DNA of 64,000 bases from Verrucomicrobiaceae bacterium (GTDB lineage: Bacteria; Verrucomicrobiota; Verrucomicrobiia; Verrucomicrobiales; Verrucomicrobiaceae): contig CANGYJ010000010.1 in the NCBI GenBank assembly GCA_947458455.1, positions 53,832 through 117,831 of the forward strand, written 5' to 3'. The stretch's first letter is position 1. Every line of letters begins with the position of its first letter. Positions 2 to 5,475 of this stretch are shown one piece after another. A program made the position numbers and the translations under genes. Below the pieces are notes generated by a model. It did not search any database, was not told where the DNA came from, and saw only the letters and a list, made by a program, of their open reading frames with translations.

Positions 2-418
2 AGCGATGTCGCCAAAGGCCAGTTCACCGCCGGCCAGGAAGTCTATTTCCGCGAAGGCCACTGCGTCACCTGCCATCAGCCGAACGGCGCCGGCCTCGAT
101 CCCGCCTTCCCCAGCATCGTGAAGAGCTCCTGGGTCACCGACGACAAGGAGCGCCTCATCAAGATTGTGATGTACGGCCTCATGGGCCCCATCAAGGTCG
201 GCGGCAAGGAATACAACGGCCAGGTCCCCATGACCCCGTTCGCCGGCATGCTCAAGGACGAGGAAATTGCCAACGTCCTCACCTTCGTCCGCAACCACTT
301 CGGCAACAAAGCCGACCCCGTCACCCCCGCTGAAGTCAAAGCCATCCGCGACGCCAACAAAGGCCGCATGATGCTCTTCACGACGGATGAGATCCTCAAG
401 GCGCATCCGATGCAGTGA
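2..418 (+). CDS. c-type cytochrome domain protein, C-terminal part (5' end lies outside the window)
   Basis: The frame is open from the window edge to TGA 416-418. It has a CxxCH haem motif (CVTCH, nt 62-76) and the tail FVRNHFGNKADPVTPAEVKAIRDANKGRMMLFTTDEILKAHPMQ. Confidence 0.8.
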   Translation, partial: SDVAKGQFTAGQEVYFREGHCVTCHQPNGAGLDPAFPSIVKSSWVTDDKERLIKIVMYGLMGPIKVGGKEYNGQVPMTPFAGMLKDEEIANVLTFVRNHFGNKADPVTPAEVKAIRDANKGRMMLFTTDEILKAHPMQ

Positions 419-630
419 TGGCGCCCCCGGTTTGCGTGTCGGTCGATTCACTCGTTTGGTTCATCGGACGCGGTTCCTGCTTCAGGTTGGGTTCCGTGTC
501 CGATTTGCGTGCGTTGCCGCCACCGATGAGATGTGATTCCATGGAAACAAGCAGACCTCGTCGAGGCGCTTAGGGTTAAGGGCGTAGTTCTCGCCCTCAA
601 TCAACGCAGCCATCAAATGCAGGTTTGGGC

Positions 631-3600
631 TCAAATCGGCCGCCTGTGCCAGACGGCTTTTTGGTAGCGAAAGGCCGGCTTGATCGAGATGTCCCTGAAG
701 GGCTCCTGATACAGGACACTGGCCGAGGAGCTCATCGGGGGCACTAGCCACATCCATTTGCCATACGGTTCGCGACCCGCTTTCTGCTCATTGCGGCAGA
801 ATTCGAGAAACTCGTGCCCCACGGTGTGATGGTCCGAAATCTTGACACCGTCCCTATCGAAGGAATGCAGCACGGCCTCGTTGAGGAAGATCATGGCCTT
901 GTCTCTCCAAAGGGTGCGGTCCTGTGAAATGTCCAGTCCCATCTCTTCCGCCACAGCGGGCAGGAGATTGTAGCGGTTGGTATCGGTGAAGTTACGCGCC
1001 GCGATCTCCGTGTCGAGATACCAGCCGTTGAAAGGAGCGAGCCGATAGTGAACCCCACCCGCATCCAACATCATATCGCTAACAGCAGGAATACAATGCC
1101 AGCGCAGCCCCATGTCAGCTACCCAGGGATGCTGAGGGTGCGTGATCAGCGTCTCATGGCGGCAATCGGCGGGTAGTTCAAAGAGCTTTGGCTTCTCGCC
1201 AGGAAGCTCAAGGACCAGTGGCAGGAGGTCGAAATGGGTGCCGCGCGGCTCCCAGCCGAGCTTAGCAATTCTTTGCGTCAGTTCGTTTTGGGCGGGGTCG
1301 CCGATCTGCTTGCCGGAGCGCAATCTCGTGCCCGCATAGCGCAGGAGTTGGGGATTCCAAATACGCGGCCCGGGTCTTTCGGGTCCATCGGGGGCAAAAA
1401 TGCTGATCGCTGGACGCAGATCACCGCCATTGAATGCGAAGCGAAGGTGATCGAAAATCGCCTCCGCTATTTCCGCTGCGGTAGTGAGGTGCCGGCAGTC
1501 TCGCAGGTGCAACCCCTTCCAGTAAAGACGTCCCACACAGCGTTCAGCATTGCGCCAGGCGATGCGGGCGGCGAAAGCGAGTTCATCCGCGGTCTGCCGC
1601 CAGGTGCCGGTGGATGCGATCACGTCTTTCACCTCGCGGATACGCTCAGCCGCGTCGGAGCCCGGGAGTGATTCTTGAAAGTATTGAGCCAGGAAAAGGG
1701 ATGCCTCCTCCTCCGCCGGCAACTTGCTCTTCACGAGCGCGGCCATGTTTGCCGGGCAGGCTGCCGAAAAGCCAGGGATGCGCCAACTGCCAGGCTTTGG
1801 CACCGCCCCCTCCCCGCGCTGCGGGTGCAAAAAACTCTCCGCGATGGCCTGAATGCCTTCCAAGCCTTTGCAGACGCTGAGTATGTCCCGATTGAAATCC
1901 TCAGGGCCGCAAATGATCGCTTCGCACGGACCCAGTTGGCTGAGCGATTGTTTCCAGAACTCGAGGGAAGGCCGGCCCGCCTTGGAAGTCATGGTCTCTT
2001 CCAACTGAATGCGATGCTGACGGGCTTCTTCGCGCAGTTCTGCGAGATAGGGGGCACCCACCTCCTCCCGGTATACATAACACACCACGATCGGGCGGCT
2101 GCCCGCGAGGGCACGCACTGCGGCGATCGCTGTAGTCACGCCAATGCCGGCAACGATGTAGACCAGACTCCGCAGATCGTCAGCACGCGGGCAGATCGTG
2201 CCCTGAGGCGGGGAGACCCGCACGAGCGATCCTTGAGGAGAATGGGAAATCCAATTGGAAAGCAGGCCACCTTCCTCGATCTTGACGCCCAGCTCATATT
2301 TTGCAGGCCCGAAGGCGGTCAGTGTGTAGGGGCGCCCCACCCATCTTTCATCCAGGAGCGCTTCGACCCGCACATGTTGGCCAGGCAGGGCCACGGGGAG
2401 CACGCCGCCGACTGCCGGCACTAGACACGCGCGCACCGTGCCCGCACATAAGGCCTCCGTTTCGAGGTGACACAACAGGGACTCCACCTCTCCCAGCATG
2501 AGTGGCAAGCGCGAGCGACACCCCCCGCACACAGTGCCTGCGCCCGTTCTGCGCATGAGCTCTTCCACCGTCTCCACCCCCTGGGCGGCGAGGCGCAAGC
2601 GGGTGACCGTGGCATTCGTGCAGGCACAGACAACCTCCGAACCGCCAAGGGCACGCTCAGATGCCGCCTCGGCCATCCAAATGCCATTCGAACGCAGCGC
2701 GGCAATCTGCCAGTTTTCCAAACTCCCCCCACGCAGCAGCACCGCCATCGCTTCAGGCAGACCGGGCCAGTCATGACGTGCCCTCAAGCCTGCGACACGG
2801 CTGTCACCTTTCGACAGCAGCAGCGAGGCGCTTCCATCCGGGGTATTGACGAGTTCCCTCGCGCCACCGGCCTCGAGAGTGCCCACCTCCACCATTTGGT
2901 TGTGTGAGAAATAGCGGACACGGACACGGCGGCCGCCGGCTTGCGAGTAGTCGGTGACAATGCAGCTCTGCCCATCTGCCTCGCCGAGAAACCGGTAGGC
3001 GGTTCCCAGCCGGGGCATGTCATGCACGAAGGAGAGCGCCTTGAGCACCGTGCCCACTTCCGGCCCAGCTTGTTGGCCGACCTGCAGCACCTCCCCAGGG
3101 ATTTCCAGCAATTCGGCCGCTGTCGCAGCCACCGCGTTATAGCGGCGCGGTGCATGACTGGTCGCCTCGGTTTCGCCAAAAATGATTCCGGGTCCGAGAG
3201 TCTCGTGAGGAACAGGGCAGCCGGGAGGCAAAAGGTTGATCTGGCCGGAGAGAACGAAAAAGGCGGTGGAGCCTGTTTCTCCCGCGCAGTAAACCGCGTC
3301 GCCTTCGGAAAACTGTCGCGATGTCGGCGCGCCGGAACCTCCCGTGCCTGTCACGGCAGCCAGCTCTGCAGAAAGCGCTCGGAGTTTTTCGAGGGATTGG
3401 ACACGTCCGGCCTCATCAAAACGAGCCGCAGCCTCTGCATCGGATGAAATCAGTTCGCTGAAGACCTCGGCGACGATGAATGCCACTCTTCCCTTGGTCA
3501 GCGCGATGACCGTCGCATTGGCAAAGCGGCGGCCTGTTCGAAAACTTTGCTCTCCGAGAAAAGTTCCCGGTTCCGTCACCACCCGGACGTGCGCCACGTG

Positions 3601-3828
3601 GGCGCTCGAATCCTGCGTAAAGATGCCAAACCTCCCGTGCATCACCATAAATACGCCGGAAGGCTTCATTCCCTCATGGATGAGCACTTGCCCCTCGCTG
3701 AACTCCTGAACAGAGGCACCTTCGGCCAGTTCCGACCATTTATCCGCCGGTATACCGCGAAAAACCTCCGCCAGACGGGCCTCGATAGCACGGCGTTCAC
3801 TGGAAGGGAGGGTTGCCTGGCAAGTCAT
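631..3828 (-). CDS. nos: multidomain nitric-oxide synthase: 2x cNMP-binding, BFD-like [2Fe-2S], FNR-like FAD/NAD(P) reductase, NOS oxygenase
   Basis: Uninterrupted 1065-aa ORF. The C-terminal ~360 aa match bacterial NOS oxygenase: haem-thiolate loop WRNAERCVGRLYW (Cys764), PFNGWYLDTEIAARN and WLVPPMSSS. The BFD-like cluster is aa 401-437 (CAC...CGGC). Reductase motifs are RPYTLT (aa 499) and VYIVAGIGVTT (aa 556). The two CAP-type cNMP motifs are FLGEQSF..RRFANATVIA (aa ~90-110) and IFGETEA..PRRYNAVAAT (aa ~216-236). Confidence 0.93.
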   Translation of the reverse strand: MTCQATLPSSERRAIEARLAEVFRGIPADKWSELAEGASVQEFSEGQVLIHEGMKPSGVFMVMHGRFGIFTQDSSAHVAHVRVVTEPGTFLGEQSFRTGRRFANATVIALTKGRVAFIVAEVFSELISSDAEAAARFDEAGRVQSLEKLRALSAELAAVTGTGGSGAPTSRQFSEGDAVYCAGETGSTAFFVLSGQINLLPPGCPVPHETLGPGIIFGETEATSHAPRRYNAVAATAAELLEIPGEVLQVGQQAGPEVGTVLKALSFVHDMPRLGTAYRFLGEADGQSCIVTDYSQAGGRRVRVRYFSHNQMVEVGTLEAGGARELVNTPDGSASLLLSKGDSRVAGLRARHDWPGLPEAMAVLLRGGSLENWQIAALRSNGIWMAEAASERALGGSEVVCACTNATVTRLRLAAQGVETVEELMRRTGAGTVCGGCRSRLPLMLGEVESLLCHLETEALCAGTVRACLVPAVGGVLPVALPGQHVRVEALLDERWVGRPYTLTAFGPAKYELGVKIEEGGLLSNWISHSPQGSLVRVSPPQGTICPRADDLRSLVYIVAGIGVTTAIAAVRALAGSRPIVVCYVYREEVGAPYLAELREEARQHRIQLEETMTSKAGRPSLEFWKQSLSQLGPCEAIICGPEDFNRDILSVCKGLEGIQAIAESFLHPQRGEGAVPKPGSWRIPGFSAACPANMAALVKSKLPAEEEASLFLAQYFQESLPGSDAAERIREVKDVIASTGTWRQTADELAFAARIAWRNAERCVGRLYWKGLHLRDCRHLTTAAEIAEAIFDHLRFAFNGGDLRPAISIFAPDGPERPGPRIWNPQLLRYAGTRLRSGKQIGDPAQNELTQRIAKLGWEPRGTHFDLLPLVLELPGEKPKLFELPADCRHETLITHPQHPWVADMGLRWHCIPAVSDMMLDAGGVHYRLAPFNGWYLDTEIAARNFTDTNRYNLLPAVAEEMGLDISQDRTLWRDKAMIFLNEAVLHSFDRDGVKISDHHTVGHEFLEFCRNEQKAGREPYGKWMWLVPPMSSSASVLYQEPFRDISIKPAFRYQKAVWHRRPI

Positions 3829-4008
3829 GACAGCGGCTGATCAAGGAGTGGGGACACATCCAGCTAAGACCTTGGGGGAAGCCTCTGCCAAACCCTGAAA
3901 CGCGGTTACCCCAAAATCGCCCCGGCACGCATCACCCGCACGCCCTCCGAAACTGCTCCGAGGGATTCGTCGCCCCAAAACAAGCGCCTTATCAAGTCCT
4001 TCGCCTTG

Positions 4009-4150
4009 CTCACCTTCGTCCCCAACCACTTCGAAAACAAAGCCAACTCCCGTCAACCCCGCCGAATTCAAAGCCATCCGGGACACCAACAAAGGCCGCA
4101 TGATGCTCTTCACGACGGACCAGATCCTCGAGACGCATCCGATGAAATAG
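4009..4150 (+). pseudogene. decayed copy of the 3' end of a cytochrome c gene (paralogous to nt 278-418)
   Basis: This stretch aligns base-for-base with 278-418 at roughly 85-90% identity by hand count. A 1-nt insertion near 4050 breaks the frame. After the shift it reads KAIRDTNKGRMMLFTTDQILETHPMK*. No upstream part of the gene is present. Confidence 0.75.
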
Positions 4151-4152
4151 CC

Positions 4153-4192
4153 GGGCCATTCCTGCCCCGTCCGTGGGGCCAGGAATGGCCCC
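4153..4192. repeat. 40-nt palindromic (REP-like) element, copy 1
   Basis: Sequence GGGCCATTCCTGCCCC-GTCCGT-GGGGCCAGGAATGGCCCC lies directly after the relic stop codon. A near-identical copy is at 57435-57475. Confidence 0.7.
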
Positions 4193-4195
4193 TTT

Positions 4196-4745
4196 ACGGT
4201 GTCTTCGCGAAGGGCATAGGGTCAGAAGAAAGTGGAACAGGTTTTCAAACCTGTTCTTGGTTCTTCGTTCCCGGTTCGTCGTTCGGGGTTCGCTTCGCGG
4301 CTTCGCAGCAGCCTGCTCTGAAGTTCAATGTTGAACGTTCAATGTTCCTTCCGCCCGCTCTGAGCCGGCCTACGGAACACGCAGAAGACACGGAAGAGTT
4401 CAGACGTGAGAAGTCAGAATTTCAGCCTTCGCGGTCATTCGTTGCCATTCCGGCTTCCATTCGCGTTGAAGCCATGCTCCACAGGCACACCGCAAAGCTT
4501 GAAAGGTCGCAGAGTCGAAAGCGAAGGGCTTAGTATTCCTTCGTCCTCATGCTCTTACTAGAACTCGTCCTCGATCCGTCGGCCTACGGAACACACGGAA
4601 GACTCGGAAGCTCTCAGAGGTCAGAGCCGCAGTGGTCAGTGTGAAGTAGGCAGCGACTCCGCTCGCGGTTCAGGAAGCCTGTGGTCAGAGCGACAGAGTC
4701 TCAGTGATCAGAAAGAAAGTGGAACAGGATTGCATCCTATTCGCT
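4196..4745. repeat. repeat-rich non-coding spacer
   Basis: Dispersed direct repeats: CAGAAGAAAGTGGAACAGG (4223-4241) versus CAGAAAGAAAGTGGAACAGG (4709-4728), and GGCCTACGGAACAC (4367-4380 and 4581-4594), each followed by CGGAAG-rich sequence. Perfect palindrome GAACAGGTTT/AAACCTGTTC at 4235-4256. TTCAATGTTGAACGTTCAATGTT at ~4323-4346. No credible ORF. Confidence 0.6.
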
Positions 4746-5115: not shown

Positions 5116-5475
5116 GATAAGATAGGCAGAAGAATGGGGGCAGCAGAATGGCGAATGGAATGCCGCTGTTCGAAAGGCAGGATCGATCAAGTCTCACGCC
5201 AAGGCGCAACGTTCGCAAAGGTTCCCAGAGGCTTTCAGGACTTTGCGCCTTGGCGTGAGATCCTTCTAGGCCTCAGACGACAAACCTCTCCCCATCCACG
5301 CAGGCTCTTCCCAGCGCCGCGAGGGATTCGAGGATTTCGTGGAGGGCGGCGGGGTTGGTGGAGGTGAAGTGTTTGGCTAGCTCGGCGGCGGTGACAGGGG
5401 CTCCGGCGGCGTGGAGGGCGGCTTCGGGGGTGGCGGGGAGGGTGGACGTGCGGGAATGACGAATGCGGTGGGGAC

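Follow-up and report, generated by a model that had tools for sequence, protein, structure and literature searches.

A predicted self-sufficient nitric-oxide synthase with tandem cyclic-nucleotide-binding domains from a Verrucomicrobiaceae genome

Introduction

Among the nitric-oxide synthases (NOS) that carry their own reductase, the best comparison for the protein described here is that of Sorangium cellulosum (scNOS), presented in two papers as an active 2Fe-2S/FAD NO synthase (PMC4436077; PMC3701330; both citing Agapie 2009). In scNOS (Agapie et al., 2009) and in SiliNOS from Silicibacter sp. TrichCH4B (PMC4436077), the same papers place a [2Fe-2S] and FAD/NAD(P)H reductase first and a C-terminal oxygenase domain after it. 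Here, we analyze a stretch of 64,000 nucleotides from a Verrucomicrobiaceae bacterium (assembly GCA_947458455.1, contig CANGYJ010000010.1, positions 53,832 to 117,831; "the window"). At 631..3828 on the minus strand it encodes a 1065-amino-acid protein with the same order of modules, preceded by two cyclic-nucleotide-binding (CNB) domains. All three proteins are bacterial and are without calmodulin and a diflavin reductase. The passages on scNOS and SiliNOS that we drew on mention no CNB domains, and it is these published descriptions, not the sequences, that set the window protein apart. A genome scan with family-specific patterns returned no Sorangium or Ruegeria, and two homology searches for scNOS- or SiliNOS-like proteins led only to an orphan and to fungal NOS. 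Judged by its sequence, the window protein is a variant of the scNOS-type self-sufficient NOS that bears CNB domains.

Further parallels are found in the animal NOS, which respond to Ca2+/calmodulin, and in Synechococcus syNOS, which has a C2 domain (PMC12922734). These enzymes have the catalytic residues of the window protein and the oxygenase chemistry predicted for it, and gating of reducing equivalents by a second messenger is a concept that they have in common with the mechanism proposed below. However, their reductase is C-terminal, of the diflavin (FMN/FAD) type and under Ca2+ input, whereas that of the window protein is N-terminal and has no such Pfam domains. On the sensor side, the cGMP-dependent protein kinase (PKG) and the regulatory (R) subunit of the cAMP-dependent protein kinase (PKA) have two consecutive CNB folds with a long B/C helix, as in the window protein, but act on a kinase rather than on a redox enzyme. 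A group of scNOS-like enzymes with EF-hands has been noted for Microcoleus and Crinalium (PMC3701330), and a paper from 2017 reported NOS genes without adjacent toxin genes in metagenome-assembled genomes (MAGs) of freshwater Verrucomicrobia, the architecture of which was not described (PMC5673642). No description of a CNB-bearing NOS, or of a CNB-bearing FNR/[2Fe-2S] reductase, was encountered in the searchable literature, most subscription journals being outside the search. Within that literature, a NOS with a sensor for cyclic nucleoside monophosphates (cNMPs) is uncharacterized, as had been assumed in an earlier reading made from the DNA letters and their open reading frames (ORFs) alone (the original prediction).

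Results

The 1065-aa protein is read from a single unbroken ORF, complete with its stop codon, in the ORF list of the window, and the very same protein, 100% identical, is found on 13 contigs of independent lake-metagenome assemblies. Its nearest relative, from a Verrucomicrobiota MAG (locus L012), is 94% identical. Comparison of these two genes by the Nei-Gojobori method gave a ratio of nonsynonymous to synonymous substitution rates (dN/dS) of 0.098 for the whole gene and of 0.08–0.21 for the individual domains, with 0.08 in CNB domain 1, 0.21 in CNB domain 2 and zero nonsynonymous changes in the [2Fe-2S] domain. Every domain of the protein is under purifying selection, and the ORF is a real, selected gene. 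Pfam recognizes two cNMP_binding stretches, Fer2_BFD, FAD_binding_6 and NO_synthase along it. The original prediction had proposed one uninterrupted ORF with this four-module architecture and had likened its reductase-first order to that of the Sorangium enzyme; both hold, with Fer2_BFD and FAD_binding_6 lying ahead of NO_synthase, and the residue ranges and motifs given for the modules proved accurate against Pfam and the alignments.

The NOS oxygenase domain occupies aa 705–1065 (634..1716, minus strand). Pfam NO_synthase (PF02898) matches aa 707–1060 with an E-value of 6e-139 and 463 bits against a cutoff of 22.7 bits, covering profile positions 7–361 of 362. In phmmer searches, the full length of the domain could be aligned to Geobacillus NOS (2flq; E 6e-100), to the B. 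subtilis enzyme and to mammalian eNOS and iNOS (~1e-96 for the last three). The predicted haem thiolate Cys764, substrate-binding Glu941, pterin-site Arg945, and Trp1025 and Trp1027 align with their counterparts in 2flq and B. subtilis NOS and are all invariant in the family, where invariance here and below refers to an alignment of 20 sequences. Foldseek matches of the whole-protein model were dominated by NOS structures. At Val916 (window 1081–1083), within PAVSDM, the aligned Bacillus and Geobacillus NOS have Ile, whereas animal NOS have Val as in the window protein (PAVS[DN]M). A switch from Ile to Val at this position of the haem pocket gives faster NO release in animal NOS. Val916 is therefore a hint of a genuine NO-releasing enzyme.

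The reductase precedes the oxygenase. A [2Fe-2S] domain of the BFD type is predicted at aa 396–445 (2494..2643, minus strand), with Cys401, Cys403, Cys434 and Cys437, which are invariant in the 20 homologues, as its likely ligands. Pfam Fer2_BFD matches aa 399–441 (E 2.3e-9), the domain model resembles P. aeruginosa Bfd (6e6r) with a template-modelling (TM) score of 0.79 in Foldseek, and a profile of this domain and the preceding domain X (see below) matched Bfd 6e6s alone among PDB sequences. Next follows a putative FNR-type FAD/NAD(P)H module at aa 446–668 (1825..2493, minus strand), for which the AlphaFold2 (AF2) model has block means of the predicted local distance difference test (pLDDT) mostly of 80–94. 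FAD_binding_6 matches aa 481–545 narrowly above its cutoff (E 9.6e-5; 23.1 bits vs 21.1 bits). The profile searches that the original prediction had proposed as a check on this module thus recovered its FAD half only; NAD_binding_1 stays below threshold in the window protein, yet is significant in relatives. The motifs of both halves, which correspond to the RxY[ST], GxxS, GxGxxP and CGP patterns of the FNR superfamily, are invariant in the family alignment, namely R499-P-Y-T502, G521-x-x-S524, AGIGxTP (A560-G-I-G-x-T565; G561-I-G-V-T-T in the window protein) and CGP (C640-G-P). NCBIfam gave only partial matches, to the reductase modules of flavohaemoprotein, PaaE and MmoC, to the BFD segment of NirB and to CRP-type cNMP domains. 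Reductase and oxygenase are joined by a conserved linker, aa 669–704 (1717..1824, minus strand), with the motif HPQRGEG...PGSWR.P.F and the invariant residues H668, R671, G672, G674, P679, W682, R683 and F687; it is probably flexible, because pLDDT is low there. Flavodoxin, FAD_binding_1, calmodulin-binding, globin/NO-dioxygenase and C2 domains were not detected by Pfam in the window protein.

The N-terminal 260 aa score as two cNMP-binding domains, as had been predicted. Pfam cNMP_binding (PF00027) matches two stretches with an E-value of 1.2e-27 and 96.1 bits against a cutoff of 27.5 bits, the best being aa 41–129, and the top match among PDB sequences is the tandem CNB-C/CNB-D of Plasmodium PKG, with the MloK1 CNBD and the PKA R-subunit also found. 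CNB domain 1, aa 18–160 (3349..3777, minus strand), consists of N-terminal helices, a beta-barrel, a phosphate-binding cassette (PBC) and a long B/C helix, according to Pfam, the alignment with PKG CNB-C and AF2. CNB domain 2, aa 161–260 (3049..3348, minus strand), is a beta-barrel with a PBC, placed by the second Pfam stretch and by alignments with PKG CNB-D and MloK1. The AF2 model has helices at aa 9–37, strands at 39–119 with a helix at 93–97, helices at 120–160, strands at 169–244 with a helix at 219–224, and helices at 245–268, such that both CNB folds appear complete with N-terminal helices, beta-barrel, PBC helix and B/C helices. The mean pLDDT of 10-residue blocks is 52–85, for the most part 72–85, over aa 11–140, and mostly 72–87, with one block at 52, in the folded parts of the CNB domains.

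The ligand sites depart from the canonical pattern. The PBC of domain 1 (aa 88–109, GTFLGEQSFRTGRRFANATVIA) keeps G92-E93 and has Ala103 at the position of the canonical Arg, followed by N-A-T; in the PDB alignments A103 falls on the Arg of PKG "PRSAT". Domain 1 can be likened to CNB-C of PKG, which is degenerate. The PBC of domain 2 (aa 214–234, GIIFGETEATSHAPRRYNAVA) retains G218-E219 and R228, has R-Y-N where [ST]-A-[ST] is canonical, and reads PRRYNAVA against the canonical PRSATVRA. It aligns with PKG CNB-D 'FGERALLYDEPRTAS', with R228 on the Arg of "PRTAS"; throughout the clade, neither Gly218 nor Arg228 varies. N-terminal sequences of 71 proteins, from the family and from cassettes, were aligned and divided into non-NOS cassettes (described below), deep-branching NOS representatives and a PVC clade made up of the window protein and P0001–P0040 (n=41). 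The domain 1 Arg is present in all 11 non-NOS cassettes and in all 19 deep-branching NOS; in the PVC clade, 18/41 have Arg and 21/41, the window protein included, have Ala. The domain 2 Arg is found in 11/11, 14/19 and 41/41 members of the three groups, respectively, Ala at +2 of it in 8/11, 11/19 and 0/41, and Thr or Ser at +3 in 11/11, 17/19 and 8/41. The PBCs of the first two groups are near-textbook (FGEQALLPG..RRNASVRA in domain 1, FGELAL....PR[STA]ATV.A in domain 2), canonical examples being of the type FGELALVRHEPRSATVRA, and the Planctomycete-type half of the PVC clade retains F-R-N-A-T-V in domain 1. Arg100 (window 3529–3531), which precedes the canonical Arg position by three residues, is present in 39/41 PVC-clade proteins and variable in all others with the cassette; if the pocket was remodelled, this substitution may compensate or may change the specificity.

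Between the sensor and the [2Fe-2S] domain lies domain X, aa 261–395 (2644..3048, minus strand), described by conservation, a focused AF2 model and Foldseek and modelled as eight beta strands and two helices. The original prediction had recognized no match for aa ~265–395, and Pfam and NCBIfam searches agree, returning no match; the region is nonetheless a strongly conserved, beta-rich domain with the invariant motif C-I-V-T-D-Y...R-V-R-V-R. The focused model (aa 256–470) has a mean pLDDT of 80, with most blocks of X at 86–95 and lower values in its first ~20 residues and near aa 316–325, and the BFD helices follow directly. The whole-protein model was uninformative for X in Foldseek. The focused search gave weak but consistent hits (E 0.008–0.4) to 4emi, 4emj, 3ef6, 2yvj and AIF, which fall on the C-terminal domain of TodA, BphA4, AIF and MerA. 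Domain X is tentatively likened to the Reductase_C-type C-terminal domain of TodA/BphA4/AIF on the strength of these models. In the enzymes that were hit, this domain serves in ferredoxin docking or dimerization.

The architecture is not a one-off. A large protein collection holds 43 clusters at 90% identity that are 42–94% identical to the query. Each of them has cNMP_binding and Fer2_BFD, and NO_synthase is missing only from one 694-aa fragment. When 1.84 billion representatives were searched exhaustively with a profile, ~22 of full length were recovered at 50% identity, and family-specific patterns run against GTDB species genomes gave 77 loci, ~70 of them with the cNMP-domain type of NOS. 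The family thus comprises at least 43 clusters and ~70 species-level MAGs. These ~70 loci are all from MAGs, with no cultured isolate, and mostly from freshwater Planctomycetota and Verrucomicrobiota; a few MAGs are labelled Alphaproteobacteria, Gammaproteobacteria, Acidobacteriota or Actinomycetota. Automated annotation calls the proteins "nitric-oxide synthase".

The NOS relatives compared that are not of the cNMP type have EF-hands or nothing recognizable at the N-terminus. Those with EF-hands are 1044–1184 aa long, share the X-BFD-FNR-NOS core and match the query from residue ~255–340 onward, with 45% identity in the oxygenase and ~29% in BFD and FNR. They differ in having an EF-hand pair (putatively Ca2+-binding) instead of the tandem CNB, at aa ~165–290 and in the same N-terminal position (P0062, P0066, P0068, P0072–P0074, P0161 and locus L076; P0066 corresponds to NCBI RAM50077.1, of a cyanobacterium in the Hapalosiphonaceae), and in belonging to a separate reductase lineage. 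Some proteins of this size and core (P0071, P0069, P0076) have nothing recognizable in place of the EF-hands, and bare-core NOS of ~690–790 aa begin at or near BFD (P0083, P0088, P0090 and L078, the last of 755 aa). Conversely, the N-terminal cassette of the window protein occurs without a NOS domain, in proteins that match aa ~20–670 only. Such 2xCNB-X-BFD-FNR cassettes are found as stand-alone proteins of ~680–850 aa (P0136, P0171, P0174) and in fusions with a fatty-acid desaturase (P0151, 1063 aa) or a cytochrome P450 (P0182, 1316 aa). Their PBCs are canonical, unlike those of the window protein, and they are apparently uncharacterized, the JGI label being 'ferredoxin-NADP reductase/CRP-like cAMP-binding protein'. 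Domain X is common to the EF-hand NOS and the non-NOS cassettes.

In a rough neighbour-joining tree of the BFD and FNR region, calculated without support values, the bare-core, EF-hand and cNMP-bearing reductases form three separate groups. Within the cNMP group, cassettes with and without a NOS domain are intermingled, and the PVC group of the window protein is a compact, derived subclade. From this grouping and intermingling we infer that the sensor travels with the reductase and that the output domain is exchangeable; these comparisons mark out the N-terminal 2xCNB-X-[2Fe-2S]-FNR block as a reductase cassette that is portable. This portability, together with the EF-hands at the same position in the sister NOS, is the strongest indirect argument for the N-terminus being a regulatory input. 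The EF-hand NOS may be bacterial Ca2+-regulated enzymes independent of calmodulin.

Discussion

The window protein is very probably a self-sufficient NOS. For the N-terminus as an allosteric gate the case is evenly poised, and for the explanation as a whole, in which a scNOS-type self-sufficient NOS has its electron delivery gated by the CNB domains and domain X, we hold a slight preference, because it brings together the Pfam modules, the invariant cofactor motifs, the NOS alignment at ~1e-100, the portable cassette and the selection on the CNB domains. By analogy with scNOS, electrons donated by NAD(P)H would reach the FAD of the FNR module, move on to the BFD-like [2Fe-2S] cluster and from there to the haem of the oxygenase, the dimeric form of which would convert L-arginine to NO and citrulline with a tetrahydropterin or tetrahydrofolate cofactor (H4B/H4F). 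The two CNB domains, together with X, would constitute the regulatory input. In the model, the B/C helix of CNB domain 2 (aa 245–268) is continued directly by X and the [2Fe-2S] domain, and a ligand-driven shift of this helix could gate the delivery of electrons. Such gating is suggested by the architecture and by the PKA/PKG paradigm, the PKG CNB-C/D that is the best match of the tandem region being an autoinhibitory module, and would be the analogue of the gating of the FMN domain by Ca2+/calmodulin in animal NOS. The trigger of the ancestral cassette would have been a cyclic nucleotide. In copies of the window type, the ligand might bind to domain 2 alone and with changed specificity, or it might be another molecule.

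Several observations weigh against this explanation. Neither CNB domain of the window protein has the full PBC motif (Gly-Glu, Arg, [ST]-A), and the erosion extends to the clade, with Ala at the domain 1 Arg position in 21/41 and, in domain 2, no +2 Ala and few +3 Thr/Ser (8/41). The CNB pair scores ~96 bits with Pfam compared to 143–169 bits in the non-NOS cassettes. The full-length AF2 model has a predicted TM score (pTM) of 0.36, which is too uncertain for inter-domain geometry. No neighbouring gene is conserved across family loci of different clades, and single-query tblastn of the 64-kb window gave no match to an adenylate or guanylate cyclase. A cyclase lies ~5 kb from the NOS gene at locus L011 and is not recurrent.

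A real, if less probable, contender is that the CNB domains of this clade are blind to cNMPs and respond to another small molecule, or act as a constitutive scaffold or dimerization unit, leaving a self-sufficient NOS that is insensitive to cAMP and cGMP. There is precedent for other solutions among CRP/FNR-family and CNB-homology domains: CooA binds haem, NtcA binds 2-oxoglutarate and KCNH channels are self-liganded. Ala103 and the PRRYNAVA of domain 2 speak for blindness, Arg100 in 39/41 PVC-clade proteins suggests a remodelled pocket, and purifying selection tells that the domains still do something. The domain 2 Gly-Glu and Arg are nevertheless kept, the latter (Arg228) in all 41 proteins, and these residues are among the most critical contacts to the cyclic phosphate and ribose. 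Moreover, F-R-N-A-T-V persists in domain 1 of the Planctomycete-type half, and the ancestral cassette was clearly canonical. Taken together, these motifs make it almost certain that the ancestral module truly sensed cNMPs, and the ligand pocket of the window protein appears as a remodelled one. Its CNB domains are taken to be functional because purifying selection persists. Binding of cAMP or cGMP by this copy is doubtful, and we consider it unlikely that either is its effector. The original prediction, that NO production responds directly to cAMP/cGMP, therefore stands to the extent that the family plausibly has a sensor role, and is weakened for the window protein itself by the degraded sites (Ala103, R-Y-N).

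Another alternative is that the enzyme, instead of being a source of NO for signalling or defence, provides it to one particular reaction in a biosynthesis, for example a nitration, or forms mainly nitrate. Some bacterial NOS do serve biosynthesis, as in TxtD/TxtE of Streptomyces (Kers 2004, as cited in PMC5673642), and the reductase cassette is also fused to P450s. However, no P450, NRPS or conserved partner adjoins the gene in the loci inspected, no toxin genes lie beside the NOS genes of the Verrucomicrobia MAGs (PMC5673642), and Pfam searches show no globin or NO-dioxygenase domain; we regard this alternative as improbable. That the ORF is an artefact of assembly or frameshifting, or a fusion pseudogene in decay, can be dismissed, since the 13 contigs from independent samples encode an identical protein, full-length homologues exist at 48–94% identity and dN/dS is low in each domain; no point in favour was found, and a frameshift splitting the ORF, a concern raised by the original prediction, is ruled out on these grounds.

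A wider and more tentative proposal is that the cassette is a second-messenger-gated electron supply that serves NOS, P450 and desaturase alike. The NOS form would then be a relay from cNMP to NO, the reverse of the animal relay from NO to cGMP, and the EF-hand NOS an independent counterpart of the Ca2+-controlled animal enzymes. The physiological inputs that switch bacterial NOS have been described as an open question (PMC4436077), and a NOS with a built-in sensor offers a directly testable answer for the widespread freshwater Planctomycetota and Verrucomicrobiota. Such an enzyme would, if this is true, be the first in which an FNR/[2Fe-2S] electron-transfer chain is controlled allosterically through gating by a ligand. 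The P450 and desaturase cassettes and the EF-hand sisters suggest a design principle in which oxygenases are regulated through a gated supply of electrons, and the cassette could find use in biocatalysis as a switchable redox partner. As the ligand sites of the window copy are degraded, deep-branching members with canonical sites are the better first targets.

Genomic context

The NOS gene is bracketed by direct repeats of ~150 nt that enclose a segment of ~3.7 kb in which it is the sole gene. Repeat search and pairwise alignment identify copy A (275..428, plus strand) as the intact 3´ end, ~50 codons and stop, of a gene for a 1385-aa ThuA/DUF7133/cytochrome-c protein that is convergent on the NOS gene and owes its identification to the annotation of locus L001. 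Copy B (4006..4157, plus strand), just upstream of the NOS start, is a relic that is ~90% identical to A, frameshifted by a 1-nt indel and provided with its own stop. The arrangement recurs at locus L012, where copy B is further decayed. This suggests that the NOS gene arrived as an insertion of ~3.7 kb at the 3´ end of the cytochrome-c gene and brought a replacement gene end with it, a reading that fits the patchy, cross-phylum distribution of the family.

At other loci, phage-type integrase or rve transposase genes are found directly upstream of the NOS gene (L006, 161–1219; L007, 1–999; L008, 7239–7772). An identical protein (P0011) is also seen in two upstream contexts, at L005 and at L006/L007, which is consistent with mobility. 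In the family loci inspected, no conserved cyclase, H-NOX, pterin-synthesis or toxin-cluster genes were present near NOS, and local tblastn found no second CNB gene in the window. Beyond the start of the window, upstream of the cytochrome-c/ThuA gene and two genes from NOS, lies a gene for an Rrf2-family regulator (L001, 17661–18068). It was considered as an NsrR-like NO sensor and rejected; it scores as a generic Rrf2 protein, and CymR and IscR outscore NsrR.

The intergenic region between NOS and polA contains two hairpins at 4234–4257 and 4722–4742 (GAAyAGG...CCTGTTC and then CACTTTCTT) and a 46-nt direct repeat of 83% identity (4366–4411 and 4580–4625). These may be small elements resembling repetitive extragenic palindromes (REP-like) or terminators. 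A further inverted repeat of 29 nt, 86% complementary and with a spacer of 11 nt, is located at 5192–5260 in the intergenic region upstream of polA.

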